Shown: positions 7,423 through 58,784, counted from the first letter of the whole stretch. The stretch is 63,992 bases of DNA, filler included, from Bonamia ostreae (GCA_040357525.1; 9 parts of 9 records of this genome joined end to end with filler, not necessarily neighbours in it), one strand, 5' to 3'. Program-made: numbers and translations. Notes: generated by a model not told the origin, from the sequence alone.

Positions 7423-7522
7423 NNNNNNNNNNNNNNNNNNNNNNNNNNNNNNNNNNNNNNNNNNNNTTAATTAATTAANNNNNNNNNNNNNNNNNNNNNN
7501 NNNNNNNNNNNNNNNNNNNNNN
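7423..7522. other. Artificial contig-joining spacer (N44-TTAATTAATTAA-N44)
   Basis: Six-frame stop linker between N runs; genes on both sides are truncated. Confidence 0.98.
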
Positions 7523-14881: not shown

Positions 14882-14981
14882 NNNNNNNNNNNNNNNNNNN
14901 NNNNNNNNNNNNNNNNNNNNNNNNNTTAATTAATTAANNNNNNNNNNNNNNNNNNNNNNNNNNNNNNNNNNNNNNNNNNNN
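14882..14981. other. Artificial contig-joining spacer
   Basis: Same 100-nt N/TTAATTAATTAA/N linker. Confidence 0.98.
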
Positions 14982-16352: not shown

Positions 16353-19300
16353 TTAATTTTTGGAATTGATGACGTCTGCCAACAAACATAAAGTTTCATC
16401 CACATCGTCTTCCAATCTCTCAGATATTAAATTCATGTTTTTGGATAACTCTGCTAGCAATTTGCTATCCGCTCTCGATATTTCTTTTGAATGTGTCTAA
16501 AATTTAGAAAAATCAAATTTGAAAAATTAAAATTATTTTAAAAAACTTTAAAAAATAAATTTAGACAAGATTGAACCACTTCAAAATGGGCGAATTTGTT
16601 TGTCAATGAAATAAAAAATTTTAAAAATAATTCTATTTCTTCTTCTTCTTCAATAAATTGGAAATCCAAATCAATTTTCGAAATATTTGTTTTCTTCAAA
16701 TATTCCAATGCTTCTTTATCTTTAAAATCGAAATTGTAAAAATTGTTAAAAAAGTTTTTTCTAAAAAGATCAAAATTTTAAAAATTGTTAAAAAAGTTTT
16801 TTTCTAAAAAGATCAAAATTTCAAAAATTGTTAAAATATTTTTTCTAAAAAGATCAAAATTTTAAAAATTGTTAAAAAAGTTTTTTCTAAAAAGATCAAA
16901 ATTTCAAAAATTGTTAAAAAAGTTTTTTCTAAAAAGATCAAAATTTTAAAAATATTATTTTTTGAATCCAAAATTTAATTAGCAAAATTTTAACAATTTG
17001 TGATTTTTTCGCAACGTCTTAGAATTTTTATTAATTTGTTATCACTAAATTTGGAAATATTTTTATTAAGATCGTCATTCTCTTCAATCTCGTCATTTTT
17101 ATTATAATCTTCTAATGACGCTAAAAAGAATGGCGCATTTTCCATTTTTTTAACGGGCTCTATTGGTCGATTTCTTTCCTTTTTATAATTTTTTATTTTT
17201 GACATTTAATTGCCAAATTTTTATTTTTGGCAATATTAATTAGCCAAACTTTTTAAATCGCCAAATTTTTTTTAGCAAAAATAATTTTTGATAAAAACTT
17301 TAATCAAATCGTAAAAAGCGAGGTTTGCCCATTTATCAATTTTCGCCGAATTTGAAAAAACGACCAAATTTTCAATTTCACTATTTTTCTCTTTTTTGAG
17401 AACTTTGTTCTCATTTTTATCGTATTTGTTTTGATTATTTTCTTTATTGCTGTTCTGATTTTTGTCGCCGTCTTTGTTGCTCTCATTTTTATTCCACAAC
17501 AAATTTCTATCCAATTCGGTCAATTTTCCATCAACTTCTTCAAAATGAGAAAAATTTCCAGCTTTTAGAAAAAATCTTTTCGGAGGGACGTTTTTGTTTA
17601 CAGAATTTGTTGGCAAATGCATAAAATGGCTTTTGTTGATCCACAAGTGAACAGCTAATGAATTTGCGTGCGTTGTCATCAGAAATCTTTCATCCGGTGA
17701 AAAGTTTATCGATGTTGGAGGATCTTCGAATTCGAACCAATCGATTAATATATTTGAAAGTATATCGAAAACGCGCACTATTCCATTTGTCGTAGTTGTT
17801 ATCAACCAACGCCCGTTTGGATGAAATGTCTTTATTGTTGTTATTTTTGTTTGTCGTTAAAAACAAAATCGGAAATCCGAGAAAAATGAGTTTCGAATTC
17901 TCTGACCATTTTCATATTTGAGATATCAATTAATGTTATTTCAAAATCGTTTGTTGTTACTCCAAGAAGATTAGTTTCCAAATGCAGTTTCATTTTGGTT
18001 ATTGGCGATCGCAATTCCAAAAATCTCAAAATTCTCGCTTCTTCAAAGTTCCAAACCTCAAATTTAAAAGAATGTCAAACTTTGATTATTGAGTCTGTTG
18101 CGCCACTAATTAACGTTTTGTTAAAAGATTCGAAGCATAATCCAAAAATTGCTCCAGCGTGAGCAGATTTGCCAATATTTTCGTCAATAAATTTTTCTCT
18201 AAAATGGCTCGATTCCATGTTAAATTTGTAAATGTTTCCAGATTGTGTTCCGACCACACAAAAATTACCACAAACGCTCAAACTTACAGTCTTTTAATAA
18301 ATTTGACAGTTATTTCTTTTAATCGGCAATTTTAAAACAAATTTGAACAATTTAAAAAAAAACTAAAAACAACTTTAAAACAAATTTTAACAATTTTAAA
18401 AAATGGTGATCAGTTTTAAACCAAATTTTGAGCAATTTTGAAAACTAAAAACAATTTTAAATTATTGGATTGACCAAAAAATAATTTTTAATACGAAAAA
18501 ACGGTTATAATAGTTTTTTCCTTAAGCGAAAGTTTTTTCTTGTTCATCGCCTTGTTTTCGAAGGACCACGTAATGGCTTTATTTGACTTTTCATGACAGG
18601 TTATAATGTTCCACCATTGGCGCTCTTTTGCTTGAGCTTTGATTATTTTATGTGATCAAATATTATAAAAATATGATATATTTTAAATCATGGAAGTCTT
18701 TTGTAATCATTAGATTTGTTAAATTAGATCGCCTTAAACTAAAACGTAAAATGATTTGATCTCTAAAAAATTTAATCGACAAAATTTTTTGTTCACGAAA
18801 AATAATCTTTTAGACTAAAAAATTAGAAATGCCCTTTAATGGCAACACAAAAAATATCGAACAAATTGTAATAACTCAATAACAAAAAATAACATGTGCA
18901 CATATCAAGAGCAATTGGCAATTTGAGACGTTCTTTTTCGCTTTTAGTGTTTTTAGCCAATTTGTCTAATTTGCCTTGACTAAATTCCACATTTTGCTCG
19001 TCTCTAATAACTGAAATTCTTCTTAAAGCTCTATCACAACCAGCGCTTATTATATCGGTTCCCTTTTCGCCATAAAATTGAGCAAAAGATAGCGGCAAAT
19101 AATGTCCAGAACGAGATTTTAAACAGATAGCAGTTTGATCTTCCACATCGATTTTCCATATTTTTAAAGAATTGTCATTTGAAGCCGTAACAAGCTTTAA
19201 ATCTTCAAGAAAATATATGGACGAAATGGTCCTTAAATGAGCTTTTTTAATGATTTGATTTAGATTTTTTTCTTCTAAATCCCAAACGTTGACGCAACCG

Positions 19301-22239: not shown

Positions 22240-22339
22240 NNNNNNNNNNNNNNNNNNNNNNNNNNNNNNNNNNNNNNNNNNNNTTAATTAATTAANNNNN
22301 NNNNNNNNNNNNNNNNNNNNNNNNNNNNNNNNNNNNNNN
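22240..22339. other. Artificial contig-joining spacer
   Basis: Same linker. Confidence 0.98.
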
Positions 22340-22648
22340 TGCAAAAAGCTTAGTCTTTCTTGTGCCATACTTTTTGTAACTTTCTTTTCAAAGTTATCTG
22401 TTTATGTATTTTTGATAGATACACTATGATCGATATCAAAGATCGAATTTTTTCAAAAATAAGATCATATAACAAAGTGAATATAACAAAAGGGAATATA
22501 ATAACAAAGTAGGTGATATAAAGAAAAAACTTTTTCTGATTTCATTCACAAATGACTTTTTGAAGTAAAATCTTACAAAATATAAAGAAATTACTTTAAA
22601 CTTGTTTAGTGTAATAAATTTTTGTCTTTTTAACTCTTTAATTATTTA

Positions 22649-23645
22649 TCAGTCAGTTTTCCACACAATGTCCAGAAAGCGCATCACTTGTTCATACACT
22701 ACCATGACAATTGCCACGTCTGCGCAAACCCTCATCATTCGCGGTGTGACGCCCTTATAGAAAGCAAGAGGGCCTTCTTCCCGCCAAATTTTTTGTGCGC
22801 AGTCTACAAAGCCATTGTAGTTGTGTGCCTGTAATCCCTGTAGACGAGTTTTTATCACGTCGAGCGGCGTGTTTCCGTACACTGAAGCGGCACCAGCTAT
22901 CGCTCCCGCTAGTGCCGTTTTAAGAGGACCTATACTGTTCGGAGCCTGTCCCTCTTTTGCGAAAGCGGCCTTAAGTTTTGAGTATACTAGCCATCGAATA
23001 GCTTGATTGCTGCCCTGCTTGAGCAAAGTCGCGGAAAGCCCTCTGTAAGTAGCCGCAATGCCTTGCTCGGAAACGATCCTGTAAACGCCGTGGAAAAAGT
23101 TGCGATACTTGCGCTGCCCTTTAGCGTTCTGCAGCTGGTCGTGGATCAACTTCACTTTTAGAGTCTCCATCGGTGTGACGACTGTCAGCGCCTCGAAAAG
23201 CCCACTGCCTAGTCCGCACAACACTGTTTTCCCTGTGCTAATTTTGCCGTCCGGTCCCTTTATTGACTCTAGCAAAAACTTCCATTAGTTTCCTCAGATT
23301 TTCGTAAGCAAAAAAACGCGAGGCGTTTTTAGGCACCGAGAAAAACAAGAGACATGACAAGCCGCGATACATTCCTAACACGGAGTGCTCGCGCACTGTA
23401 GAGCGAACGAAATTTAGCACGCCATCTTTTGAGAGCTGCCTGTTAAGCTGCATTTGAGTCTTAATATATTCTGTGGGATAAGTGATGCTTATTTCGATTG
23501 CACCAGAAAGTCCGCCGGCGAGTATTGCCTTTAGCGGGTGTCGGCTCTTGTTGCGGTTAGGCTGTCTTGGCACGACCGATTTCTCTTTGTTGTGCTCTTG
23601 CGAGGAGTGCACCTCTACGGCTTTGTTCCGGAATGACAAAAACAT
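22649..23645 (-). CDS. SLC25A1: Mitochondrial tricarboxylate/citrate carrier
   Basis: Three Px[DE]xx[KR] repeats (YPTEYIKT, TPMETLKV, TPLDVIKT), KQGSNQAIR; 22-nt intron at 23258-23279. Confidence 0.92.
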
Positions 23646-24710: not shown

Positions 24711-25680
24711 ATGGCCAATTTTGTAAAACAATCAGATTCGATATTAACAGATGTATTTCGCTATCTGACGGTCCCTGAACTCGCTCAAATGCGACTGGTT
24801 TCAAGAAAATTCCGTCTGGCAGCAGAGAAAACACTCGCCAAACTCCAACTAGCACGAATCAAAAACTGTTGGGACAAAGCTGACTCTCTTAAGCTCATAG
24901 CAGCGCACTTTCACTCCGTTCGAAAAGTGGTGATCGCTTGTTACGGCGGAGAAACCGCATTTTCAGTTTAAACCCCCTATATTTTAGGCTGCTATAAAAG
25001 TCTTCCAGTCGTGCCCACAACTGGAAAGTATTGGAATAATCCCTGGTGGTGCAATTAATTGCTTTAACGGAATGCTTCATCGTATCAGAGAACTGGCTGT
25101 GTCCATTGAATCGGCTACCGAGTTAGATAGCATTGCTGTCAAGTGTGACAACTTGGAAATACTCGAGATAGAGTGGGCACCCTTCGCGCCATCTAGACGC
25201 AGTCTCTTGCAGGTTTTCTCGAGCTGCACCAGAATTCGTTCACTGTCTCTGTGGGGGTTTTCTGTCGAACCCAGTCAATTTTTAGTAGCCAAACGCATCG
25301 AAGAACTATTTTTCTACTCAACAAATCTCGACGACGACTATCTGGAGTCGCTGTCGCTGCAGCTCTGCGACAAGCCGTTACGGCGTCTAAAAATAAGCGG
25401 CCAAACTTGCACGATAAGAGGCATCTTGAGCGTTGCGTTGTATTTGCCAGAACTAGAAGAACTAAATATTAGCTACACCAAAGTGGACGGGGATGATGTG
25501 GCCGATTTGTTATCAGCTAAAAACACGAGAGGGGAGTTGCAAGTTCTGAGGCACTTGAAGCATTTGTCAATAGGGTGGGATCAAGTCGATGTGGTGAAAA
25601 AGAGGCTTTCATCTCTGAGAAAGAATATGGTTGTGGATTGTAGTCCTTGGTGCAAACAAAAGTGCTGTGTTGCCGATTAA
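24711..25680 (+). CDS. F-box/LRR protein
   Basis: F-box ILTDVFRYLTVPELAQMRLVSRKF then LRR-like repeats; a 22-nt intron at 24966-24987 restores the frame. Confidence 0.8.
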
Positions 25681-26068: not shown

Positions 26069-27629
26069 ATGAATTCTAACAGCGATGTGAATTTTGTTGA
26101 TCTAAAAAAAATCGGCATTATGCGTTCCACTGCAAACCTTGTGAACATCATCCTCGGAAGTTTTGTTTCTACAAATCAACAGGCGGAGTACTGTACATAC
26201 CCAAAGCTTTGTCTCAATCAGGGTTTTATTTTGGTGTATTTTTGTTGGTATTGGTCTCAGCCATGAGCGCTTACATTAGCGTGGAATTGGTGAAAATAGC
26301 AAAAAAAGGTTTGAACTGTTTTCAATCATTCGAAAAAAGAGAAAGTAAACGAATATGAGACATTAGCGGAAAGAGCTGGTGGAACTTGGTTGTTCTATCT
26401 GACGAGCGTTTTTTGCTTTCTCTACTCATTTGGTGCATTAGTTTTGTTAAATATTTAAAAAAGATGAACTACAGTGAGTTAATCAAGTCGAGCATCGAGT
26501 CGATTCTGGAGAATTACTGGACGACGACGCAACTAAAACAGCATTGGGTTTCTATTGGGATCACCCTGGCATTGTTTTCGCTCGTGGTGACACCACTTTC
26601 ATTGTTACGCCAACTAAGCATGCTATCGTGGACGTCTATTCTCAGTGTTTCTACATTCTGTCTTCTCGCGATAGGCGTTATAATAGCGGGTGTGCGCACC
26701 TTTTCACAAGTTTTTAAATTTATGCAATCAAGCCGACTGTTCCAACAAACCCTAGTTTTTCTGGAATCGTAGCAGCATTTGGTAATTTTAATTATAACAT
26801 TGGCAAAAAGGAACTCTGTCATATTCTTTTGTTTGTACGGATAGCATTTTCCCTGTCTATTTGGGGCTGGAAAATCCAACACAAGGCCGTTGGAACAAAG
26901 TCGTGATTTCTACCGTTGCAACCATAGGTGGGTTGTACCTAATATTTTCGACAGCTTGCTTTTTTTTGATCCCTGTACTTGTTACAATTTTCACTTTTAA
27001 AAAAGGACGATTTTGTTTTAAACTCGCCTGAAATCTCCAACTTGATCGAAATAAACATCTGTAAATTGCTTCTTGCAATCACTATAATTTTCACTTACGT
27101 TGTAAATCTGCACGTCTCTCGAACTTACCTATACGCCATGATAGGCCAAGCTGGCAAATTTGTAGATCGTTTAAACGCAAAGAAACTAATGTTTCTTCAT
27201 GTTGGCATAACGCTTTCGTTTTTAGAATCACTTTAAAGGGTGATCGTTTTAACGCTAACATTTGGCCTCTTGATCGGAGATTTGATGTTTATCGTGGAAA
27301 TTACTGGATTAGTGTCTAGTACGGTTGTCGGGTTCACTATTCCAGTTTTCATCATCTTCAAGGTTTTTATGCTTCCAACAATGTCTTGATATACTTCTTA
27401 GTTATATTATACTTTTATAATAAATTATAATTTTGCGTATTTATAGATGAAAACATTTGAAAAGTTGTTTGGGGAATTTATTGACACATTTAAATGTAAA
27501 AAGAAATTTAAATCGGGTTTCAAAGCTGTTATGGACTTTTCTATCCCAATATTCATTTTTATTTTCGGAATTATTGCATTCATTGTTGGCCCCCCATTAG
27601 TCATAATGGATTACTTGAAGAAAGAGTAA
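26069..27629 (+). CDS. Amino acid transporter (Aa_trans/SLC38-like), many short introns
   Basis: NLVNIILGSGVLYIPKALSQSG, PLSLLRQLSMLSWTS, multiple TM helices; introns at 26160-26182 and 26441-26463. Confidence 0.85.
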
Positions 27630-27763
27630 ATGAGATGTGCTTCTAAAAATAAAATTTTTTGTTTATAAAATTTTGGTAAAAGTGTGCGAGGATAAGGAGC
27701 TACCGGCAAAAAAAGAGTCAGTTTCGACGATTTGGACGTAATTAATTAACATAAACTGCCGAA

Positions 27764-28376
27764 ATGTTTAAAAGTGCCTCAATGTTCTTTTTGTCGTTGA
27801 TCGACATGTTGTTCGGATGCCTGTCTTCGATGCTCGGGTACAAATATTTACATTCCTTCGACGTAGTCGTCGGCTTCCTGTGTTTTGTTTTAATTCGAAG
27901 TCACAACGACTGGAATTCTGCTCTTCTTCGCTTCATGTATAGACTCGTCTGTATTCCTAACCTTCACTATCTTCTTTGTGGCGGTTTCCACATTGATATC
28001 GCCCTGTCAAGTGTTTTATTGGGCTTCAGAAGCAAAAAAATATTGCGCTGGCAATTTAGATGATACGAAGAAGTGCTTGAAATTTGTCACTACTTGGACT
28101 TTTATCTGTTTTACGAATTTTAAAATTTATTTCGCATATTTTCTGCTCAATTACTTTTTATCACTAACATAAATTCTTAAAGGTGTGGGCGCCTTTCTCA
28201 TTAGTTTCATATCACTGGTTTTGGTTTCAGTGAAAATATCTAGCATCGGTAAGAAAGAATCTCAATTGAAAACGAATCCTCAAAGAAAGAAAAGACGCCA
28301 CGAGGAAATATCGCTTTCGGTTCCGTTCAGAATGAGCAGGAAAAACGAAGACGATAGGGTTGGATTAAATGTTTGA
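27764..28376 (+). CDS. Hypothetical membrane protein, multi-exon
   Basis: Chain of hydrophobic ORFs separated by short GT-AG segments. Confidence 0.45.
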
Positions 28377-29519
28377 GTATTTATACTCAGTAACTTGAAA
28401 CCTAAAATCAATGTCATTAACGATAAAATTTTGGTAACTCGAAGTATAAATTATGTAAACAACATAATAAAAAAGCTTTTTTTTATAAAATGTGTCGCCT
28501 AAAATTTGAAAATTTGTTTTAAAAGAGAACGCTACAGAGATCCAACCTTTGGCTTTTTTAAGAAAACCTCTGTTTATGGTAACACTGAGATCAGTGAATT
28601 TTATCCAAGAACCCTCTGAGAGCGCTAAGACTCGTTTGAAAGTCTGCTCTCCTGTTTTCTTTTCGATAACGATGGGCATAAATGAACCCTTTGTCTTGTT
28701 TATCACCAAATCCGTCATTCTTTCTATTCTTTTAATTGTGATTTGGCAAAACTGGTAACGGAATTTTTTCTTGTTATTAGTTCCATCCCACACGAAGAGT
28801 AGAATCGTGCCATTATCAAGATTTCTTTTCTCGATTACCTTTATTCGTTTAAAATAACCTGGCATTCGATGTTTTGCGTGCCGTATCCTAAATCCTTTAT
28901 TTCTTTACAAGTGTGGGAAACGACAAAGTTGTTTTTCTTTGCAAAGACTTTCAAAAATTTTATTCTGTAGTAATCAGACGGGAAAGGGAGATTATCTGAA
29001 GACTTTTAAATATAATCTGACATGTTGGGATGTGGATTGTTTTAAAGGGAATGCGCGAAGACGATATACAAAACAACATGACATATTAAGAAGAGTGTTT
29101 ATCCGTAGTAATTTTTACAGTTTAAATACAAAAAATAATTAGATATGTGAAGACGTAGAATGCCTCAATATTCGTTTTAGCTGTGCAGCTGTAAACACGC
29201 CACCGACACGAAGATTTTTCAGGAACGACCAGAACAATGTTACAGTTGTTAATGACGTCTGCTTTGATGCATAAACAGACAAAAATCGAAGGGGCCTCGA
29301 AGCCTTTTACTGGTAGGTTGGATCCACTAAACAAGTTTACACTTGTTAATCGGTTTGTGGTCTGATCGATAATTTTAAAGCTAATCATATATGTGGCCCC
29401 TTAATTTATCAACTGAAACGGTTTCTAACTTGTTTTCTCGCCTTCGACATCACTATAATGCCACTAACGTTGTATTCGCCCGATTTTATGACATTTTGAA
29501 GCTTTGTGAATTCGGGCAT
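28365..29519 (-). CDS. POT1: POT1/TEBP-alpha-like telomere ssDNA-binding OB-fold protein
   Basis: OB1: YNVSGIIV..TYMISFKIIDQT..VNLFS..LP; OB2: LLFVWDGT; 20-nt intron at 29400-29419. Confidence 0.72.
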
Positions 29520-29585
29520 TATTTAAATAAGTTGATATAAATCAAAATGTATTTCGGATAGCAACTTCCAATAAATCTCTTCTAG

Positions 29586-29685
29586 NNNNNNNNNNNNNNN
29601 NNNNNNNNNNNNNNNNNNNNNNNNNNNNNTTAATTAATTAANNNNNNNNNNNNNNNNNNNNNNNNNNNNNNNNNNNNNNNNNNNN
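29586..29685. other. Artificial contig-joining spacer
   Basis: Same linker. Confidence 0.98.
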
Positions 29686-29754
29686 TGTCATCATAGCAAA
29701 AAAAGATAATATAGTAAACGATTAAATATCATAGCAAAAAATAATATTTTACCA

Positions 29755-30320
29755 GTGAACGATTTGTTAATAACTTATCATGTTCTGTGCAAGGATGTCA
29801 ATGTAGCCAACAAAGATATAATAAAATATTCCAAGGAAAAGTTAATGTCAACTATAGATTTTCTTGAACAAACATTGAAATTCGGCAAATCTGAAATCGC
29901 ATTCCATTTTTTAAATGACAAAAATCCCCAACTTGTCATCGACGAATGCAGAAACGAATATGAAAAGTATTGCAATGTTTATTTTTTGTACTATTACGAC
30001 TTTCAAACTATGGACGAAGATGATCTAAACGAAAACCCCCAAAACACTTCACAGTTCTTACTCGATACCGCCGAAGAAATAAGAAAAAACAAACGAAAAA
30101 GTGATAAAAGTAAAATTTGGAATGAACTTAAATTGTTAATACAAAGCGATAGCCAAAAAATTGATCCAGATTTTTTCAAACGTTTTTACAAGCAAATTGT
30201 TGTGCCATGTTTAAATAAGATATTACAGTTTTTTTTATCCAAAATAGACGTTCAACAAAATTGCAAGACGCGTTTAATCAAATGGATTACAAGAACATGT
30301 CTTATTTGCTTTGCTATTAA
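29755..30320 (+). CDS. Lineage-specific hypothetical protein (paralog of 35898-36405)
   Basis: ORF plus a 20-nt intron at 30228-30247 giving the C-terminus RSTKLQDAFNQMDYKNMSYLLCY*. Confidence 0.6.
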
Positions 30321-30495
30321 ACGACTTATTGTTTTTCGATTGGACATATTTTGCAAATAAACAAAATTTATTTTTGGTTATTTAAACACGAAAAAACCAA
30401 TAAAAAATAAACAGCAAAACAGATCGCCAAATAACAAAATTATGGAAAACAAGTTTGAAATAACATAATATGAAACTACAAATTTATAAAACTAC

Positions 30496-33322
30496 TTAAG
30501 ATTTGAAAGACATGTTGTTTGAAGCGATGAGGGCCCATTTCAGGGACTGCTTAACGGATTCGTTTTGCGCCGAATTTCCGATTTCAAACAATTTTCGAAC
30601 AGACTGATTCGCAGACAGCGGCGCCAAAGTTTCTTTCAGAATATCAGCCATGTCACTTTTTGTGATTTTTTGTAAACATTAGCGATTTATAATTTTAACA
30701 AATATCAAATTTTGTGATTTGACAATATATCAAATATTATATTAGCAATTATATTAGCAATTATATGCAAATCGAAACCCGATTAAAGCTAGAGCAGATG
30801 AAACAACTTCAGGGCTTTTTTCATCATCGTTTACGACTTTGTCGACAAGATCGACGATCGGAGCGATGAACTGGAAAAACTTTTGTTTCGGCTCGATGGC
30901 GCGGACAGAGTGCAAAATCATCGAGAAGGTCTCGAAAAGCGCCGACCGAAGCGAATTCGAAAACTCGATGTCCGCATAACTGTTTCCCGCCAACTGCATT
31001 TTCGCCACTCTCTCCAGAAGAGACATCACGTGGCTAAAGTACCGCCCAAAATTCTCATTCAGCGACAGCGCGATGTCGCCAAAGCACACTATCACGCTCG
31101 GCTTCACCCTCCTTTCCACCGACGGGTTCTGCAGCGTTTTGATCAGCGCCTGCACAAAATCGTCCGCCATCTTGTTTTGGTACAAAGCGTTCCCCATCGC
31201 CCGGAACACGTCACCCACGACTCCGATGGAGACCTGGCACGCGTCCGGGCCGAGGCTGTTCCCCAAACCGCTCATCAGAAACGGTTTGAGCTCCGACACG
31301 AAATGGCTCATCTTGGACTTGATTTCTTCGATTCGAGTGTAAAAACTTGTGATGACCGCTCCGATGGCCAACAAGACCTCCTCGAAAATGGTTTTGTCTC
31401 GCGAGTTCAAGACGACGAACAGTACTTTCATAATGTCGTCCACTCTCTCTAAAACGTCGTCTTCCGCCATCACTTTTATGACGCTCGAGATGGAGCCGAC
31501 CAACACGGCTTGCAGATTGCTTATTTGGATGGCGTGGTCGACCGAGGCGCTCAAGCTGCGCTTCAGGTCGGCCGTGAAAAGGGCGGCTAGTTTGAGCACG
31601 TCGTTTTTGGACTGCTCCGCCGCGGACAAAACGATTTGGTTTACCGTTTCGTAGCAGCAGAACAGCAATTGGTGTTCGCCGCTGTCCGGTCGTTTCGAGG
31701 TTTCCAGAAGCGCTTGTACCAGGTTCTGGAAGAACGGCGTCAGCGCGTTCGCTCCGAGGCTGGGCTGGTTTTCGGCGGTCGCGCTGGCGATGCTGTGCAA
31801 GCACCAGCAGCAGTTCGCGGCGATCTTGGGGCGGTCTTTGAGGCCTTTGATGGCTGTTTGGAGCAGCAGCGCGAGGCGGTCCGAGTTGACCATCTGGGCG
31901 CCGAAGGTCTTGCAGATGCGCGCCAGAGTCCAGGTGGCCGTGTCGCGGAGGAAGGCGTTGTCGGAGGCGCAGAAGGAGAGGATGACGTTGTAGCAGTCGG
32001 AGACGATGGGCGCCAGAGTTTCCTTCCCGGGCCCTTCCATCAGAACTCCGACTGCGCAGACGGCGGCTTCAGCCTGTCGCCAGTCGTTCGAGCGGAGGTG
32101 GGAGCGTAGGAAGGGGACCAACAAGGGGGCGAGTTCGTCTTTGGCGCATCTCGAGACGAGCTGGAGACACGCGGAAGAGGCGCTCGCGCCGTTGACGGCG
32201 TCTTCTTCAAAGTTTTCTTCCGTTTGTCTGGTCATCTGCTCGAGCAACAATGGGACTACTCCCGGGAGAGATCGCGCGATGTAATTTTTGGAGTCTTCCT
32301 TGCGCGTGAAAACGGCTTCCACGGGGGCCTGCAACTCGGTCTCGTATTCTGACAGCGTGGCCCAAAAATCGAGTGCTCTCAGAACCACAGATTGCGGAGT
32401 GGAGGAGTTCCTCAGAACTCGCGCGGTCTCTTTCAGAACGTCCGAGATGGACTCGGAGAGGAAGCGGTAATGGACCTCAGAAAACCGCGTGAAGAACTCG
32501 AAGGCAGCCACAGACATGTTTTCGTCTTCGCCGCGAAGACATTCGAACACGGCGTTGGTGACGACTACGCGGCCCCGGTCATTGCTCAGAACGTCCTGCG
32601 AAAAAAAGAGCGCCTGATAAATCATCTGGAGCACTAAAGACTTAACGAAAGGAGGCAGTTTGGAACGAAGAGCTTCTACGGACAGTTCGAAGATGGCGTT
32701 CGCATGTTTTTCCATGTGATCCGGAACCTCTTCACACAGATAACCGATCGTTTTGAAAGCGCCTTCAGAGGCATTGGCGGAGATGGCGTTCTCCTGCTCG
32801 GAATTGTTAGCGGAAATGGGAGCTGAAGCCATTTTTATGAGGTTCTGTACCAGGTTGGGCCAATTGTCGAAGGGCATTTCCACAGAGGCGATCTTGGAGA
32901 CGACCAAAGCGGAGACGCTCCGGGAAGTCTGGTTTTTGGAATTGAGCATTCCGAGGACTTTTTCGCGAATCGTTGCCCTGTTTTCGGCCGGTATTTTGAT
33001 CCATCTCGCTTGCAGCGATTTCTTTAGTTCTGTGTTCTTTGTTTTAATTTCAAATTACTTTCGCGTCAACGGCGTTTTTGAGGAGAATTCCGGCTAAGAG
33101 AACTGATTGAGTCGGTTTGTTCTCGTTCGAAAGCTCATCGCATAAAAGATTGAGATAATTAGTCTGACATTAAAAAAATAACAAAATCGTTTTGTTCCAT
33201 TTCTTTGAGGTAACCTTCGGCTTGCTTGCGAATGGTCCCGTCTTTGGCAAATTAGAAATCAAACCGGGATTCTGTGTGGCCAGAAGAGTGTTTGTTAATT
33301 CAAAGTTTGCCATTCTACTCAT
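30496..33322 (-). CDS. KPNB1: Importin subunit beta-1
   Basis: HEAT repeats; IGYLCEE, ALDFWATL, DWRQAEAA, LRDTATWTLARI, VKPSVIVCFGDIAL; introns include 33242-33264 and 31326-31346. Confidence 0.95.
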
Positions 33323-33729
33323 ATAGCAACCTTTATTATTATTTAGCTTTGGCTTATATATTAACAAAATTGCATATTCCCCGTTTAGCCTTTTAAATTT
33401 TTTATTCGCGAGATGGCTTAATATGATCTTATGAACGGATTTAACCGTTTTTGATTCATTTTTTTCCAAATCAACCATTTGGAATTGTTATTGCGATTTT
33501 TAATAAATTTTTTCGGTGGATGAAATCTTCTCAAGGAATGTAGATTTAATTGAATCTTTATTGACTAAAAATATACCGTTTAAGCGATTGAATAGGAAAT
33601 GTCACATAATTTTCTGTACGTAAGATTGTAAAGATGTTAATGACTGTTGTCATTCAATTAAATTAGCATTACAGTCAATATTTCCGGGTAAAAAGACTGG
33701 AAATGTTATAAATTATATTAATACAAACA

Positions 33730-35375
33730 ATGACCATTTTAGTTGTTATAATAATTTCTTCAATACATTCTCAGTCAATTCCAATGCAAAAAAACGAAGT
33801 GGCATCTTGCTACGCTCTTTTTCGCGAAAGCTGTCACTGTGAAAATGACTGGGCCAAATATAAAATATTTTCCGATGAATGTCTACCGATATTTAATATT
33901 AGTAACAAAAATGCCATTGTAACAAACTCCTTTGTAACAAACATTTATGAATGTGGAGGTGATTTGACGATTTCCTTGGCTGCCTTTGACCAAAGTGGCA
34001 ATTTTTTGGAATTCTTAAAAATGACAAAATTCAAAAATGTGGAATTATTGAATTGTTTTCTAACAATTTTACCGAACGGGGCTAATTTTATACGGTATTT
34101 TGAGTATTTTGATGACATAGGGTCGGTATACCAGTCAAAAAAGTATTTTTATGATAACAATAACATCAAATTAGAACCAAAATTTTTAAATGGAAAAGTT
34201 ATCGTAAGGTCAAGTCTTTACAAAAACAGTTTTTATTAAAAATTGTAGATTTTTATGTGAAAGGGATAACAGATATCAAAAAATCGAAGATGAAAAATTT
34301 GAAGATACAAACTATTAAAATTATCGATAACGATAACGTTGAATATGTAGTTTATGTCAATGACACAATCAGCAATATTCAAATATCAAACGAAGATGAT
34401 TCTTTTGTCAAACAATTTTTACTTAATAATCAGACAAACACTTTTTCAATCGATTTTTATGATTTTAATGTTACCAAAACCGATGGCAGTTTCAATAATT
34501 ATATAAACAATAACAAAAACGATCCAAATAATGGAAACAGTAACATTGATGTGAAGGAAAATGATGTGGCATCCCATATAAAAATATTAACGGTGCACAA
34601 AGATAAAAGAATTAAATCAAAATGTGAATTAAAAATGACTATTTGTTTATTCTTCGATAAATCGAGGTTCGATTTTGATTCGCAACAAGATCTTTATTAT
34701 CAAAACGGGATCTTTCAAGAACAAATTGATCTAGTGAACAGATTTTACGAACGATTTGATATTTTAATAGATGGCGAATTAATAATGGACATTTTCATAA
34801 TTTTGAATGAAAAAGAATTCAAAAAAGTTAGTTTGAGCAGAGATAGAAAAGACGTCTTGTTTCACGTACTCGAATCGTTGTTTAATCGAACGGTCCTTCA
34901 AAAAGATTTCAGTTTTGTAGCAGATAACGATCTTTGTATAGAAAAATGGCGTTCAAAAGACGCCAATGAATTAGAAAAATCTAATTTTGTTAAAGAGGGA
35001 CTAATCATTATATCTATTTTCAATGAAAATGATGGTAAGAATAAATTTTTGTTGGTAAAGAATATAAAAGATGAGCAGACTTTGACAACAAATTTTGAAA
35101 GATTTGAAAATTTTAATAATATCTTTGAAACTTTAGAAGAATGGATAATTAAAGACATTAAATGTATTTATAAAAAGAATTTAAAGAAAATATGGTTATA
35201 TGTACTTCTAAGTTTATCTCTTTTAATCATTTTCTTGTTTCTATTTGCTTCACTGTGGCTTCAGAGAATAAAAAATAAAGAAAGACAAAAGTCTTTAAAA
35301 TCTAACGAAGTAAATTTTGGAAATTCTAAGAATGATGAAGTTAAAGTTCTTTCGCCTGAAATTTTGATTATGTAA
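33730..35375 (+). CDS. Orphan type I membrane protein (2 exons)
   Basis: Signal peptide MTILVVIIISSIHS; TM IWLYVLLSLSLLIIFLFLFASLW; short basic tail. Confidence 0.7.
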
Positions 35376-35897
35376 ATATTCAGTTAATCTTTACTATTTT
35401 TTAAATAAAAAGTCTTTTAAATAAATTTATTAAATATAAAAATTGAAGATTTATTAAATATCTTCGTTTGATAATATGTTGACACGTTGTTTCAATAAAA
35501 GATTAGTACAAAAAATTAGATCTTCAATTGTCGAAAGAATAAATTTTATTTTCGTTTGCGCTCATTTACGTAGTGAAAAATCTGCCATTGTCAAAATGGG
35601 GAGAATTTGGAAAATTTGGTTTAGAATAAATTAAAAAGACAAATTAATAAAAGATAAAATATCTTCGCAAAATGTCAAAAAAATATAACTGATTTTTAAA
35701 GCAATAAAAATTAAATTTTTCTGGGTTAAAGACCTTTCTTTTCTAATTGTTACATCAGTCATATTAATTTAGTTTTCAAAAATTAAAGTTAGATTTCCAT
35801 TAAAGATTATATTAAGTTTGTTTTTCAGACTATAAAATCTTTATCTTATAAATATTTTCGTCGTTGCAAGGAACTTTATATTCATTACTACAAAATA

Positions 35898-36405
35898 TTG
35901 CAAGGAAAATATTCAATGCAAACGGAAGATAATTTCGACCATATTTTAAGCGAGGAAGAATGTAAAACCGCATTCAAACTGTTAAACAAAGAAAATTCTC
36001 AACTCGTCAGTCAAAATTTAAAAAATGGATATGAAATATTTTGCAACGAATATTTTATTATGTTCGAAGGTTACAAGTGTGCTGATGAAAACAATCGATA
36101 TGAAATCAACAAAAAACTAAAAGAATTGGTCGAAGCTTTCCAAACTTTGCGAAGATCAGAAAATTCGAAAAAGAAAAAGTTAAACGCGTTCAAAAAAATA
36201 CTATCGCCAAAATCATTTCACTAAATGACGAAAAATTAAAGAATGAAAGCTGCTGTAATTTGTTTTGTACAGTTTATGAAAGTTTGGCTGTGCCATGTTT
36301 ACAAAAAATATTCGCGTTTTTTAATTAAACAAAAGTCGTTCAAAAGAATTACAAAACGCGTACAACGAAATGAGATCTGAATCCAACTTTTACTTGTGTT
36401 ATTAA
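35898..36405 (+). pseudogene. Paralog of 29755-30320 with a frameshift at an A7 run (pseudogene or sequencing error)
   Basis: Shared VPCLxKI motif and intron 36316-36335; C-terminus RSKELQNAYNEMRSESNFYLCY*; frame break near 36192-36198. Confidence 0.5.
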
Positions 36406-36894
36406 ACGACTTTAATTTTCTGTTGGCGCATTAATTAAAATGACAACAACAAAATGATTTAATGTAAAAATTCCCATTCTTTATTATAAAAATTTTGCGT
36501 CTTAAAATAAAAGAAAAATTTTTATATTTAGAGACAATTGTTCAAATTTGCAGAGGCAATTTTAATATTTCAAGTCAAATAATTTTAAATTTAATCAAAT
36601 CTCTCCACTTTACATTTGCGCTTTGTTTTTACGAATCCTCGTTTTCGAAGATTCGCCGTTTTTGAATTTTATCCATTAAAAGATGTTTTATCAAAACATT
36701 ATTTCCATTTATTACAATGGCCAATTTTGTTTGTTTTGGATTTTTTGGAATTTGAATTTTTACAAAACTTTTCGCTAAAAACATTTCAAATTTTAAAATA
36801 TCTTTTACGTATTTATTAATCCATATCCATTCGCAATTTCCTTCCACTTTTTTTCGCCTTTTAAAATCTGTTTGATCACTTCCATACCGTCAGA

Positions 36895-36994
36895 NNNNNN
36901 NNNNNNNNNNNNNNNNNNNNNNNNNNNNNNNNNNNNNNTTAATTAATTAANNNNNNNNNNNNNNNNNNNNNNNNNNNNNNNNNNNNNNNNNNNN
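36895..36994. other. Artificial contig-joining spacer
   Basis: Same linker. Confidence 0.98.
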
Positions 36995-38330
36995 GAAAAA
37001 TTAAAAAGTGTGAGCTTGGAAATCATATAATAAGTCTTTGTGCTATTAACAGAAGATTTTATTAATAAAGAATCCCCATCTTCTTTCCAACTAAACTTAA
37101 CGCTTCCAGCTGACAATCTTTTGCTTCTAATCGATCTCGAAAAACTTTGAAGATAAAGTAGCAAAACTTCGGGAAATTGTAAACTGTCACTTTTGAAAGA
37201 CATTCCTTCGATATCAAATTTTGAAAGTCAAATTTAAAAAAGTCAATTTAAAATTTTGTTGAATTTTAAAATTAAATTGTACTTTGTTTTTGCTCTTTAG
37301 AAATAAAGCGATTCGTCCATTCGAAGCGGACATTGAGAAGCTTTTGAGCAAGAACGAAGTGTTTTTGTTTGCAGATTCGCCCTCTGTCGCTGAAGCATCG
37401 AAAACAAGAAATGGTTCAAAAATTGTTGTTTTTTCCGGTGCGTCGTCCGCGTTGAAAAAAAGTAATTTGTTTTTTTCATTGTAACAAAAAATGCTTTTCC
37501 CCTCAAAATCGAGCCATTTGAAAAACGGCCAATTTTCCGTATTGAAATTTTTCATGATCAGAGCGAAAATGATCTGAAATAAAAATCGTCCAAACTTTGT
37601 CGTGTACGATATCTCGTATTGTCAAGTTGGGCTCTTCCGCGTTTTGAAACTTATTCAACGAAACTAAAAATCTGTTGTTCGGGGAAATGTCTATTTCCTG
37701 AATATACTCTCTTTCCTAAATTTTAAAATTGAAAACAATTCTCCGTTTGTACATTATCGCGTCTGTGTTTGGAGAATTGTTCAGTTGGATTTTTGTTATC
37801 ATTTCTTCCAACTTTTTGTTATCGGATTCTATTTTCTCGCACCTTTCGGCGGTAACAAGTTTCTTTTTATTTTGGTGCGTTAATATCGCTAAACGATTCA
37901 AAATTTAATTTTTGAGGACTAGAGAAAAATTTTTGTTGATTAGAAAAAATTTTTTGTTGAATTTTGGTAAATGCAAACGAAGGAATATATTTTTTCGAAG
38001 GTTGCGCTTTTATAGATGTAAATAGAAAAATTATCGATAACGCCAATAAGAGAGCTATCGCGGCTCAAAACTATTTTGCGCGTAGTCTGGCCTCTTTAAA
38101 ATAAAAGAAGAAACTCTAAAAACGGTTTTAGGGCCGGGCCGGATTTGTTCGCTGGACTAAAGCTATATTTTGCTTCTTCGCGAACTTTTGGTTTACAGAA
38201 TCTTGCAAACTTAAAATTGTCTGAGGAATTGACATCTAGCGCGGAGAGCCGGGAAACTTAGCTTTATAATATATTTGGATGTGCTAAAATTTTAAAGCTT
38301 TTTAACAGTATTTGCTAAACTTTTGAAAGT
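36995..38330 (-). CDS. EIF2A: Translation initiation factor eIF2A (WD-type), 3' truncated; 5' end approximate
   Basis: EEPNLTIRD..KNFNTENWPFFKW and SAGSVKFSWKEDGDSLLIKSSVNSTKTYY match eIF2A propeller motifs. Confidence 0.6.
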
Positions 38331-38447
38331 AGTGATTTGTCGACTGTGAGAATAATGAAGATAAGTTTTATGATATGATTGTATAAGTTTGGAGAAAGAT
38401 TTAACAAAAGGAATTTATCGATATTTTCAAAAATCAATTAAAAATAT

Positions 38448-38692
38448 TTAATATTCGTTTTCCGGTTTTTGAGTTGGTAGAAGCTTAAATCGTTTTTTGC
38501 ATTCGATTCGTTGTTTTGAATAGACATCGTCTGGGGAGAACTTTGCTATTTGGTCGTTTGGTGAAAACCTGGATGCGCGGAGATAGTGTTGATTTCTTTC
38601 CCGGAACAAGAGCAACTTTCCTTTAAGTAAAGATGGCAAATTTAAACTTTAAGAGTGTATTTTCCACAACAAACAGTACGCATCAACAGCAT
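38448..38692 (-). CDS. NOP10: H/ACA RNP subunit NOP10 (3 exons)
   Basis: Spliced product [64 protein letters not shown]; introns 38621-38647 and 38546-38568. Confidence 0.92.
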
Positions 38693-44185: not shown

Positions 44186-44285
44186 NNNNNNNNNNNNNNN
44201 NNNNNNNNNNNNNNNNNNNNNNNNNNNNNTTAATTAATTAANNNNNNNNNNNNNNNNNNNNNNNNNNNNNNNNNNNNNNNNNNNN
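44186..44285. other. Artificial contig-joining spacer
   Basis: Same linker. Confidence 0.98.
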
Positions 44286-45206: not shown

Positions 45207-45825
45207 TTTTTGTACTTTATCGATATTTTTAAGATTGAACTCGCTTTTCTGGTTTGCGGCGCTTTTCTATATTTCCGCAATTTTTAGATTTAGCCGAATT
45301 ATCAAAATTTAAAAATTATTTGTTTGCAAAAAAATGTAAATTTATCATTGTCGATTTTNNNNNNNNNNNNNNNNNNNNNNNNNNNNNNNNNNNNNNNNNN
45401 NNNNNNNNNNNNNNNNNNNNNNNNNNNNNNNNNNNNNNNNNNNNNNNNNNNNNNNNNNAAAATTTAAAAATTATTTGTTTGCAAAAAAATGTAAATTTAT
45501 CATTGTCGATTTTTATCGTTTTGCAAAAAAATCTAAATGTGCCAAATTGGTAAAAGTATTTTCACAAAACTTCAAACTGGCTCAAATTTGCAAATTGCTT
45601 TTTTTGTTACATTGTCAAATCATTTTTTATCAAATTACTTTTGAATATTAAATATTTTAAAAACATTTTTAAATAACCCTTCAAAAAATTATCGTAGATG
45701 AAACATTTTTATGATTTTAACATTTTTAAAAAAAAAACATCGTAGATGAAGCGGAGAATTTTGAATTTAATTAAAAATCGTTACGAGAAAAAACTGCGAT
45801 ATAAGTTTAAGCACAATTAGTCAAA

Positions 45826-47010
45826 ATGAATTTATCAGAAATAACATTGACATATTTCTTCGCCACAAACTCTTTCAAATCTCTCTCCCTTTTTAGCAAA
45901 ATGTTAGTTGTAACTATAATTGCTTTCATTGCTATCTCTGCGACGTCAGTTTGCAGATACACGAAAAAAACAAAAAATAAATTACCACTGTCTGTGAAAA
46001 CGAAAAATCAGTCAAAAATGGATAAAATTTTTGAAAATTATCTTCGAAAAATTAATGTTTTTTGTGATTGGTCCAAAATTTTTCAGAAAACTGTCAAAAT
46101 GCGTTTGGAGCAAATTAAAAACCTTTTCGCAAAAAATGCGATAACTTTTACACCGAAAAACAAAATCGAAAACGAACCTTCAAAAAGTTTCTTCAACAAA
46201 AAATTGATCAACAAAGACCAAACAGTAATTCTCAGCAACTATCCTGAATGGTGGAGCACTTCAAAATTGGAAAAAATCTTTTTAAAATTCGGAAAAGTTA
46301 AAAATCTCAAGATTATTTTTCCTATTCGAGGAAAGAGATTCTGTAAAACTACTTTTTACACTCGCAAAGAAGCCAAAAACGCGGTTGATATTTTGAATTC
46401 AACTATCTTTTCTTACAAAATTGTTAGCGCCGCCTTAAAAAGCGACTTGGAACTTGTCAAATCAGAGGAATCGAAAAATGAAAGAAGTTTTGGTGATTTT
46501 GGCACACCTTCTAATTATAGACTTTTGAGTTTAAATTTTCAGAAACAACTAAAATCGACCGAAAAATATTTTCAGAATTTGAACATGGGTAGGATAAAAA
46601 CAGATTCTAATGATATCGAAGATTCCAGCAGTTCTGAGAACACTTCTACCGATTCATCTTCTGAAGAAAGGGTGTTCTTCAGAAAAACAGGGAACAGTTT
46701 TTTAAGAAAAGGGGATTACCGAGTTTTGAGAATGGGCTCTGATTCGCGCCAACCGCCGCGCAAAGTGTGTATATATTTCCAAAAAGGGATTTGTAGAAAG
46801 CTCACCGATTGCACTTTTATGCACTTCTGGCCTGAAGACATTTGCCAGAGATTCATCAGAGGGGATTGTGACATTAAAGACTGTAATTTGGTGCATGTCG
46901 ATTCTGAAAACAGAATCTATGTCCCTTCAAATGGGCAAATTAGGAACGAACGAAGATTTAATGAAAAACGTGTTGATGAAATAGTGAAGGAGGATAAAAG
47001 GGAATATTAA
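45826..47010 (+). CDS. RRM + tandem CCCH zinc-finger protein with N-terminal hydrophobic segment
   Basis: RRM (VILSNYP..IFLKFGKV..RFCKTTF); C-x7-C-x5-C-x3-H and C-x7-C-x4-C-x3-H fingers. Confidence 0.8.
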   Translation: MNLSEITLTYFFATNSFKSLSLFSKMLVVTIIAFIAISATSVCRYTKKTKNKLPLSVKTKNQSKMDKIFENYLRKINVFCDWSKIFQKTVKMRLEQIKNLFAKNAITFTPKNKIENEPSKSFFNKKLINKDQTVILSNYPEWWSTSKLEKIFLKFGKVKNLKIIFPIRGKRFCKTTFYTRKEAKNAVDILNSTIFSYKIVSAALKSDLELVKSEESKNERSFGDFGTPSNYRLLSLNFQKQLKSTEKYFQNLNMGRIKTDSNDIEDSSSSENTSTDSSSEERVFFRKTGNSFLRKGDYRVLRMGSDSRQPPRKVCIYFQKGICRKLTDCTFMHFWPEDICQRFIRGDCDIKDCNLVHVDSENRIYVPSNGQIRNERRFNEKRVDEIVKEDKREY

Positions 47011-47202: not shown

Positions 47203-48470
47203 ATGTCAGGATTAATCTTCTGTTTTACGCTAATATCTGTCCATTCAATCAACGAAGAAAATATTTCAGAGGTAATATTAAATTTTATTGGTGAAGGTGC
47301 ACGTTCATTACCCCATAAACTCAAAGTTTTATATTTGAATTACAGCGCCGATTCTAAAAATTTTGAATACGGAGGATCTACAGTTGCAACAAATCATTTT
47401 ATCAGACTGACCCCGTCCGTTAGCAATAGATTTGGCTGGATTAAATCGACGAAAGCCGTTGAAAGCACTATTTTTAGAATGGATGTTGCCCTCAGGTTTA
47501 CAGGAGGCAACAGATACACAAATGGCGATGGAATCGCGATCCATTTTTTTGACCAACCCGATGACACCGACTTCTTCGTCTCTCAATATTCTGCTGAAAG
47601 TTTTTACGGCGTAAATCCGTCGCAAAGAGGGTTTTCGGTGGTTATAAAAACTAACGAAGATGGAAAAGTAAAAATCTTTATAAGTGACAATATGAAAGCC
47701 AAAGATCGAAACGTTTAGTACAAAATATAAACAGATTGACGATATTTTTGAGAACAACGCGGGAGGTTCTTTTGTAACAGGTACGTGTCTTCTAAATTCT
47801 TTTGGCGATGAAAAAAACACAATCGTGATTAACTTTTTCAAAGAAGATGTATATATCTATTTTGAAACCGATAAACTAGAATTTTGTGCAGCAGCAAAGC
47901 TTTCCAAAACGTTTGAGAATTTCCCCCGTTTTGGAATAGGAGCAATGACATCAGAACAATTCAATAATCATGATATTTTCTCAGTATTTGTTAAAACTAG
48001 CAGATCGAAAAATAGCAATAAAAGTATCGATTCATTTTTAAAAGCTGGAGAAAAATCATTTTCCGAATCTTTTAGATTACTGAAAAAGTGCTTATTTTTT
48101 TATTGTAATCAGTTTTTGTAATATTGTAAAAAAAGTCGGATAAAGAGAATGTTTTGGTTTGCTGCTGTGATTTCCGGAATGTTGTTGTTTCTGGAGACGG
48201 TTTGGGAATTGTCTCTTTTGCAACACGTCGTCAACGACAAAGTTTTGTAAAAACGTTTTAGCTCGTTCCAAAAGAAACTTTGAATCTAATCAATCTGGCG
48301 GTCCCTTACACCAATTACGTGATGATCGGTCTCTTCGTCTACACTTTGTTGTCGTTCAGAATTTTGATGGCGATCTTTTTGGCGCCGATTTTCGCGTTCA
48401 AAGTTTATCGACTTGTTTTTTGCAAAAAAGTAATTTCTGAAGACGAACAAAAAGAACGTATTGAAATCTG
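47203..48470 (+). CDS. L-type (legume-like) lectin, ERGIC-53/VIP36-like, copy 1
   Basis: FEYGGSTV..IRLTPS..GW, GDGIAI, FGIGAMT..NNHDI; C-terminal hydrophobic segments. Confidence 0.8.
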
Positions 48471-49619
48471 ACGAATTTGATTATACAAAAAATTTTAATG
48501 GTTATTCGATAATGCTGTGTGCGTCTGTTGTTGCATATGTTTTTTATACTTTTCTCGCGGTTGGAGAACTCGTTTCGTTCTAAATAAATGGAAATCTTGA
48601 AGTCTATTACTTTTTTAATAAATTTTTATTCATTTTTAAAACTATTCAGATTTTTATTGAAACAGATATTACTTAAAAACTTTTTCGAATTATGAAGTAC
48701 ATTGAAAATTATGTAACAATCATTTCCATTTTTGAAAATTTTCGTTCAATATGTAAATTCTTTCTAATGTTAGTTTCATTTGCGAAACAAAACCGATTGT
48801 TTTGCAGTAATGCAAAAGCTGCAATTTAATTTGCAGAAAACAATGAAAAACATTTAATTTGGCTTTGAAGTATTCAAAATAAAAAACAGTAAACAAAAAA
48901 GCCAATTTGTAACAAGATTGTTCTCAAAAGATTTTGTTACTCGCAATTTTTTGTGCATAGAACGAAAACAAAATATTCGAAAAAACATAGAAAACAAGTT
49001 TCAAGTCATTTACGTTTACTTTCCATATTGTTTCTATATTGAAACATAATTTAAGTTTAGATTTTCATTTAAAAACAAATACAACAAAGTAAAAAAATTT
49101 AGTTTCAATAAAGAATATTAAATGATAGACTAAAAAAGTTTGAACAAAACTAATGATTACCAATTGTCAAAATGTTTTTAGATTGGTAAAATTATTTAAC
49201 ATATTATTTACATTGGTCCCAAAGATAAAATTTACAGTAAAAAATGCGAAAATTGAATGCAAGATAATCCTTATTAGGCCTAAAAAGTCGAATCATAATT
49301 CTTGTTAGAAAAAATATTCAAACAGACAAAAATAAAACTTTAAAATTTAACAGACAAAATGTTTGAGAAAATCGTTTAGAAGACATATAAAAAATAGATC
49401 CATAAATTTTTCAAAATATTTGAATTTACAACATCACTAAAAAATCTGCTCGAGCAAAGATGAACCCGACGATTTTTAATATTTCGAAATTAAGTCGAAA
49501 CACTAATTACAAAAAATAGATTTAGCTCGACAAAACTTTTCTAAAACAGCAAATCGCTATTTTAACTAATCTCCCATTTTAAAAGATAAAAATATATTTC
49601 TAATTTATCGATAATCGAG

Positions 49620-51441: not shown

Positions 51442-51541
51442 NNNNNNNNNNNNNNNNNNNNNNNNNNNNNNNNNNNNNNNNNNNNTTAATTAATTAANNN
51501 NNNNNNNNNNNNNNNNNNNNNNNNNNNNNNNNNNNNNNNNN
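51442..51541. other. Artificial contig-joining spacer
   Basis: Same linker. Confidence 0.98.
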
Positions 51542-58684: not shown

Positions 58685-58784
58685 NNNNNNNNNNNNNNNN
58701 NNNNNNNNNNNNNNNNNNNNNNNNNNNNTTAATTAATTAANNNNNNNNNNNNNNNNNNNNNNNNNNNNNNNNNNNNNNNNNNNN
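58685..58784. other. Artificial contig-joining spacer
   Basis: Same linker. Confidence 0.98.

Follow-up and report, generated by a model that had tools for sequence, protein, structure and literature searches.

A 63,992-base stretch of the Bonamia ostreae genome (hereafter the window) raises the question of how splice sites are found in introns that are typically 19-25 nucleotides (nt) in length, begin with a U-rich donor and end in an A-rich tract closed by AAG. The original prediction, which placed a novel splice system at 26441-38647, held that such introns have self-complementary ends and that hairpins between these ends bring the splice sites together. We find that the segments are removed from RNA and that their unusual end signals are real, and consider them probably to be ordinary spliceosomal introns of the GT-AG kind, from a parasite genome that is compact, AT-rich and fast-evolving, with signals read by a spliceosome with a co-evolved U1. 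The departure from ordinary splicing is real, though modest.

The window consists of nine contigs, ordered by falling size from 7,422 to 7,143 bases with the last cut at 5,208, which are joined by artificial linkers of the form N44-TTAATTAATTAA-N44 (7423-7522, 14882-14981, 22240-22339, 29586-29685, 36895-36994, 44186-44285, 51442-51541 and 58685-58784). Neighbouring contigs are without physical linkage, so no feature is to be read across a linker, and the range 26441-38647 crosses three unrelated contigs because linkers join them. Per-contig GC is 24-38%, and a Pfam scan recovers eukaryotic open reading frames (ORFs) for importin-beta, a cyclin, ribosomal protein L5 (RPL5), a mitochondrial carrier, Utp21/WDR36, an amino-acid transporter and L-type lectins; in one scan 41 of 57 exon pieces had no Pfam family. 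The organism is very divergent: the best relatives of its importin-beta share only 27-29% identity with it (a search returned three matches at 27-28%), the relatives of its RPL5 in a metagenome scan are only 41-49% identical, and a 42-base stretch of the window had no match in a scan of genome contigs. A public Bonamia ostreae hypothetical protein, P0124, is 100% identical to the window when exon 2 of the carrier gene is used as the query. Scans of the window for tRNAs and against Rfam, the latter relaxed to E≤5, found nothing.

Direct evidence for splicing comes from contigs of four public runs aligned to the contig at 22340-29585, to which all the RNA evidence applies. Run X4 is taken to be RNA, a guess backed by the junctions observed in it, and X1 and X2 are DNA runs. 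Ten segments of this contig are missing from X4 contigs and kept in those of X1 and X2. Six are tiny, with lengths of 20-24 nt: a 22-nt segment, GTTTAAAC..TTTTAG, in an F-box/LRR-like gene (24966-24987, plus strand), which was also called in all three gene-finder runs; a 23-nt segment, GTTTTG..AAAAAAG, in the amino-acid transporter gene (26441-26463, plus), which joins 42 and 102 open codons; and, on the minus strand, segments of 21 nt (GTTTTCTT..CCAAAG, 28547-28567, seen in X4 as 21 bases missing at 28544, an equivalent placement given the repeated end bases), 24 nt (GTTTTGCC..TTAAAAG, 28729-28752), 20 nt (GTTATTTT..AATAAAG, 28839-28858, seen as 16+4 missing bases with one junction mismatch) and again 20 nt (GTTTCAGT..AATTAAG, 29400-29419, the sole GT..AG pair joining both frames). 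The other four are longer, at 75-152 nt: an 84-nt intron of the transporter gene (GTTTTTAT..TTTATAG, 27363-27446, plus), skipped by a GT..AG joint in the X4 contig; a 152-nt intron (GTCTTCAC..TTAAAAG, 29003-29154, minus); a 133-nt intron of a gene at the contig edge (GTTTTTTC..TAAACAG, 22398-22530, minus), with an X4 contig joint at a depth of 20.5; and a 75-nt segment (28402-28476, minus) whose X4 joint has one extra letter. After equivalent placements, nine of the ten have GT..AG ends, and the tenth, 28402-28476, has GC..AG-like ends and is a possible GC-AG intron, its boundary being uncertain as it adjoins a homopolymer that differs in size between runs (an extra T after 28476 in X1 and X2). 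This difference, and a base missing at 27708 in X4, X1 and X2, appear to be polymorphisms or errors of homopolymer length within the window.

A second line of evidence is that removing the introns restores the reading frame together with homology in the RPL5, importin-beta, Utp21 and citrate-carrier genes. The RPL5/uL18 gene has a 19-nt intron, GTTTTGAA..TTGTAG (57209-57227, plus), and its alignment is full-length only after splicing, when the product covers 303 of the 307 residues of P0002 at 70% identity. The importin-beta gene (30496-33322, minus; Pfam TPR_IMB1 and IBN_N) gives a spliced model covering residues 3-874 of the 884-residue homologue P0121, with three tiny introns removed at 33242-33264 (GTTTGA..CCAAAG), 33164-33182 (GTTATT..GTCAG) and 33037-33058 (GTAATT..ACAAAG), as well as a 123-nt one at 30656-30778 (GTTTCG..CAAAAAG); the model with 33037-33058 scores 385 bits and that with 33037-33070 scores 375. 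Three introns of the Utp21/WDR36 gene on the minus strand, of 35 nt (17830-17864), 24 nt (18057-18080, with a GAG acceptor) and 120 nt (17179-17298), are each the sole GT..AG pair joining the frames, and the Pfam profile of the second WDR36 propeller runs over its exons as 118-182, 183-245 and 247-330, uninterrupted across 18057-18080 and 17830-17864. In the citrate-carrier gene, a 22-nt intron, GTTTTTGC..AATAAAG (23258-23279, minus), joins 138 and 202 open codons with Mito_carr on both exons, and P0124 reads exactly across it, changing frame there. Finally, two pairs of paralogues have introns at matching sites. Paralogue A carries a 20-nt intron, GTTTTTTTT..AAAATAG (30228-30247, plus), which agrees in site, phase and length with that of paralogue B, GTTTTTTAAT..ACAAAAG (36316-36335, plus), the terminal exons being homologous; in the latter a 70-codon ORF is joined to a terminal exon of 22-23 codons from the only possible donor GT.

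The four example strings of the original prediction all occur in the window at the coordinates and on the strands given for them. Three are backed as introns, namely 26441-26463 by X4, 23258-23279 by P0124 and 36316-36335 by its paralogue. The fourth, at 38621-38647 on the minus strand, is a motif match unverified as an intron: it is flanked by only 21 and 24 open codons, with no ORF of at least 70 aa nearby and no clear coding signal.

To avoid circularity, the splice signals were assessed in sets chosen without regard to motif. Besides the ten RNA-defined junctions, these are frame-forced sites, where a forced donor is the only GT, and a forced acceptor the only AG, able to join both frames. 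From 97 candidate introns, 76 passed the requirements of at least 20 open codons in each flank and a read-through of at most 35 codons, giving 61 junctions, and ambiguous junctions were excluded from the forced sets. A gene finder based on codon usage was discarded, as it drifted to GC-rich ORFs and antisense calls.

The donor bias is strong. GTT opens 8 and GTTT 7 of the 10 RNA-defined junctions, and among the 14 forced donors all have GTT and 11 have GTTT. Two motif-blind gene-finder runs gave GTT in 20 and GTTT in 13 of 28 introns, and GTTT in 24 of 39, respectively. The curated set of 29 tiny introns has GTT in 27, GTTT in 23, GTTTT in 14 and GTA in only 2. Set against the background of 5566 GT sites on both strands, 45.9% of which are GTT and 22.3% GTTT, the enrichment of GTTT has a binomial p of 1.2e-5 in the forced set and 1e-10 in the curated set, which bears out the claim that most donors are GTTT(T) rather than GTAAG. 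Within the curated set T occupies +3 in 93% and +4 in 79%, +5 is T in 66% and G in 21%, and only 21% have G as the last exon base (-1). Exceptions do occur among verified introns, with GTAATT, GTACTT and GTCTTC donors and TAG, CAG and GAG acceptors. Minor-type (U12) introns have an extended, highly conserved donor and a branch motif, and none with such a donor was found among 43 tiny and 13 long introns.

It could be argued that this motif merely mirrors AT-rich composition or mis-called introns: GTT already makes up 46% of GT and AAG 42% of NAG in the window, and the motif-trained gene finder over-calls introns and over-extends acceptors, having proposed 28720-28752 where RNA gives 28729-28752 and 50139-50172 where a paralogue supports 50139-50160. 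That finder was used only for proposing junctions, and the motif-independent RNA and forced sets nonetheless show GTTT at 70-79% versus 22% (p 1e-5), while homology returns only after removal of the introns. An artefact of this kind is therefore already refuted for the donors, and we give the explanation as a whole next to no credence.

The acceptor shows a weaker preference. AAG, the trinucleotide that the original prediction had singled out, ends 6 of the 10 RNA-defined junctions (TAG 3, CAG 1, GAG 0), 11 of the 15 forced acceptors (TAG 2, CAG 0, GAG 2) and 18 of the 29 curated introns (TAG 6, CAG 4, GAG 1; AAAG in 16), with enrichment p values of 0.014 and 0.023; the enrichment is modest, since in DNA so rich in A the share of AAG among NAG sites is already 41.9%. 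In the interior, the absence of a polypyrimidine tract and of a clear branch consensus stands as originally described. Positions -12 to -3 of the curated introns are 0.50 A, 0.29 T, 0.14 C and 0.06 G (43% pyrimidine), -3 is A in 62%, positions +3 to +10 are 0.57 T, and a gradient along the intron leads from 0.66 T in its first quarter to 0.55 A in its last. A search for TRA within introns found no branch motif at a fixed place. The consensus is an A-rich exon, GUUU(U), a short U-rich stretch, and an A-rich 3' half ending in AAG or, less often, UAG or CAG. At 15-35 nt with a median of 22, and 25 of the 29 at no more than 25 nt, the curated introns belong to the ultra-short class (median below 30 nt). 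A minority of introns are longer, and thirteen such introns of 62-237 nt have the same end signals (GTT in 10, AAG in 10).

A U-rich 5' end and an A-rich 3' end are complementary by composition, and the original prediction proposed that the two ends of each intron pair in a hairpin that brings the splice sites together. Complementarity does hold at the level of the consensus, with 3.76 of 6 positions pairable on average between positions 2-7 and -2 to -7, and among the minimum free energy (MFE) structures at 15 °C, 14 of 29 pair nt 1-4 with the last six. However, permuted 5'/3' partners pair equally well (3.58; p 0.16), and contiguous end pairs number 2.38 versus 2.39 in the permuted controls. 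The comparison of energies with shuffled sequences, which had been proposed as a check, goes the same way: at 37 °C the introns average -0.59 kcal/mol, shuffled interiors -0.44 and chimeras of 5' and 3' halves -0.60, for 15 of 29 introns no structure is predicted at that temperature, and at 15 °C the mean is -2.47 versus -2.45 for chimeras. The lengths of the U-run and A-run in an intron show no correlation (rho 0.15, p 0.45), verified introns such as GTTTAAAC..TTTTAG and GTAATT..AAAAAG have non-complementary ends, and introns of 62-237 nt share the end signals although a few A-U pairs could not hold such ends together. The ends are thus complementary because the two consensus tracts are, and the individual intron adds nothing to this; the hairpin idea is weakened, and we regard it as very unlikely. 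Nor do the introns resemble the non-conventional introns of euglenids, in which paired ends bring the exons together through stable helices and GT-AG is lacking; here GT-AG is the rule, and such helices as are predicted are negligible and do not surpass those of the controls.

That long introns carry the same tracts argues instead that these are read in trans, and the spliceosome would be the reader. A precedent is offered by Entamoeba, for which the available part of the source reports GUUUGU at 88-90% of donors, a preference for U at +7, and a U1 with AACAAAC replacing ACUUAC (bioRxiv 10.1101/2022.06.08.495308). Altered snRNAs or a reduced dependence on U2AF had been suggested originally, and an altered U1 is plausible here because Entamoeba has exactly that: the donor would most likely be bound by a U1 with a co-evolved 5' end, as ACAAAC matches GUUUGU in Entamoeba, and the expected 5' end would be something like A(A/C)AAAC. 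Pairing of the U6 ACAGA box to intron positions 2-6 might contribute. The original prediction had regarded this box as a poor partner of GUUU, a view contradicted by the Entamoeba account, according to which GUUUGU may allow increased pairing with it at intron positions 2-6 (bioRxiv 10.1101/2022.06.08.495308, in the part available). At the other end, the A-rich 3' half may provide the branch adenosine, only a few bases away from the acceptor, replacing the branch motif and the pyrimidine tract, much as the text of PMC13644364 proposes for other tiny introns. The complementarity of U-rich and A-rich ends would then be a by-product of the donor and 3' signals.

The main rival to a co-evolved U1 is that the same introns are handled by a reduced spliceosome without U1 pairing, in which the donor is set by U6/U5 together with proteins, and the 3' end is defined without a U2AF65-type tract reader. 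With G at only 21% of both -1 and +5, pairing with a canonical U1 would come to about 3-4 base pairs. Mikrocytids, which belong to the same class, are credited in the accessible text with only 17-19 spliceosomal proteins plus U2, U4 and U6 (PMC10245619), one whole spliceosomal subcomplex is missing in a red alga (PMC6009652, in the part available), and GUUUGU is possibly better paired with the U6 ACAGA box (bioRxiv 10.1101/2022.06.08.495308, likewise). However, the available text of PMC11069148 assigns the loss of splicing genes to the branch of paramyxids and mikrocytids rather than to that of haplosporidians, and describes B. ostreae introns as canonical. No member of the U2AF, SF1 and U1-protein families was found among 77 ORF pieces scanned. 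We favour ordinary spliceosomal recognition with a co-evolved U1, with U1-independent recognition as a rather improbable main rival and functional hairpins as a distant third.

Several points weigh against ordinary introns read by a co-evolved U1. One concerns the transporter, an Aa_trans-family gene at 26069-27629 (plus) with eight introns inferred by a three-frame reading guided by the conserved stretches of the family (Pfam Aa_trans on exon 26464-26709): 26160-26182, 26309-26339, 26441-26463, 26710-26732, 26782-26810 (GTAATT donor), 26975-27005 (GTACTT donor), 27218-27238 and 27363-27446. The single X4 contig over this gene has only two of the eight removed, 26441-26463 among the first four and 27363-27446 among the last four, and the six that it keeps rest on homology and frame logic alone. 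In the same X4 contig, the neighbouring minus-strand gene (28365-29519) has all its introns removed, which hints at intron-specific and often inefficient splicing, though contigs cannot show absence. Moreover, the RNA label of X4 is only a guess; the curated set comes in part from the motif-trained finder, on whose genes the coding model of the second motif-blind run was trained; and the sample is small, at 64 kb and 29-43 tiny introns. The structures at 15 °C noted above belong here too, as do the permutation tests, whose power is low for near-homopolymer U and A ends, so that a weak consensus-level helix is possible. As for U1, all that is said of recognition is inferred; several lineages with atypical donors have kept a canonical U1 according to the available part of bioRxiv 10.1101/2022.06.08.495308, and in mikrocytids only U2, U4 and U6 are recorded as found in that of PMC10245619.

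The comparison with known systems is given here as far as the available parts of the sources go. With Entamoeba the window shares U at +3 and +4 (93% and 79% here) and a U-rich stretch beyond, but Entamoeba has a near-invariant GUUUGU in an intron-poor genome with introns that are not tiny, whereas here +5 is G in only 21%, the introns are tiny and the genome is intron-rich, with eight introns in a gene of 1.56 kb. Myxobolid and Dicyema introns have a median of 22-27 nt and no pyrimidine tract, with A's upstream of the AG proposed as the branch site and with a canonical U2 branch-binding region and U2AF1/2 retained (PMC13644364). These are likewise tiny GT-AG introns of compact-genome parasites with weakly conserved A's before the AG; their donor is, however, 'GTa', as opposed to GTA in 2 and GTT in 27 of 29 introns here, with A at -3 in 62%. 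Mikrocytos and Paramikrocytos, from the same class of rhizarian parasites, have few introns (224), highly conserved, of 16-17 nt and absent from transporter genes, with incomplete splicing reported at 63% and 37% (PMC10245619). Extremely short introns and incomplete splicing are shared with the window, where, in contrast, lengths range over 15-35 nt with long introns in addition, and introns are frequent and occur in a transporter gene too. Tiny introns are also known from chlorarachniophyte nucleomorphs (18-21 nt; PMC6009652), Porospora (28 nt) and Babesia microti (20 nt; both PMC9250747). These, like those of Paramecium and Stentor, are GT-AG introns with little else conserved, in which a branch motif is either not obvious or reduced to one A close to the 3' end, but the accounts available describe no U-tract donor or AAG-dominated acceptor. 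Further differences are a GC content of 54% in Porospora, a different gene density in the nucleomorph, and a median intron of 57 bp in orthonectids.

Tiny introns and U-rich donors are thus each already known, and their combination appears to be new. A literature search, with figures and some supplements outside its reach, found no account of tiny GTTT..AAAG introns and no match for an intron-rich genome that combines about 80-90% U at +3/+4 with an A-tract acceptor. For B. ostreae itself, the word 'intron' is absent from four supplement files of PMC11069148, and no logo appears in the available part of its text. One might go further and propose a splice code of inverted polarity, in which a U1 with a retargeted 5' end, or U6 on its own should U1 have been lost, binds the U-tract directly after GU and the A-tract with AAG serves as branch site and acceptor without a U2AF65-type reader; this could be a stage preceding the 16-17-nt introns of mikrocytids. 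We put this forward tentatively, as a possibility that we do not expect to hold in full.

With U at donor +3/+4 in an intron-rich genome, B. ostreae would add a second lineage, independent of Entamoeba, and would provide a direct test of U1 co-evolution. Tiny introns, moreover, now extend to another order of the class to which the mikrocytids belong, which bears on intron miniaturisation. At least one of the introns (23258-23279) is present in the public annotation, and the class is thus not wholly unrecognised.

There is also a practical consequence, in that introns of 19-25 nt with GTTT donors are easily missed in gene models. In the RPL5 gene (56522-57470, plus) the recorded protein P0001 (284 aa) is an unspliced read-through that lacks the C-terminal domain PF14204 present in RPL5 homologues, the spliced product being 309 aa in length. 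The carrier gene (22649-23645, minus) is recorded as P0124 (233 aa), which begins at an internal Met; the frame is open for 92 residues further upstream, and since this stretch covers the first carrier repeat the P0124 model looks N-terminally truncated. The published figures for B. ostreae, in the part of the source available, are averages of 2 introns per mRNA and 658 bp for the coding sequence, along with 65.9% of the genes in a conserved set (PMC11069148), and missed tiny introns could contribute to all three.

Further observations concern the neighbouring genes. The homology of paralogue B (35916-36405, plus) to paralogue A needs a one-base frame change at 36180-36215, in or near an A7 run, where no GT..AG candidate fits; it is either a homopolymer error or the mark of a frameshifted copy. 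A 399-aa ORF at 45811-47007 (plus) contains an RRM (E 2.5e-5) and a weak Torus/CCCH-like match (E 4.9e-4, below the cut-off), in the reverse of their order in RBM22/Cwc2, and encodes an RNA-binding protein of unclear role. On one contig, two L-type lectin paralogues (48136-48471 and 50581-50916, plus) are identical at 333 of 336 bases of their 3' segment, introns included, which points to recent segmental duplication or to duplication within the assembly.

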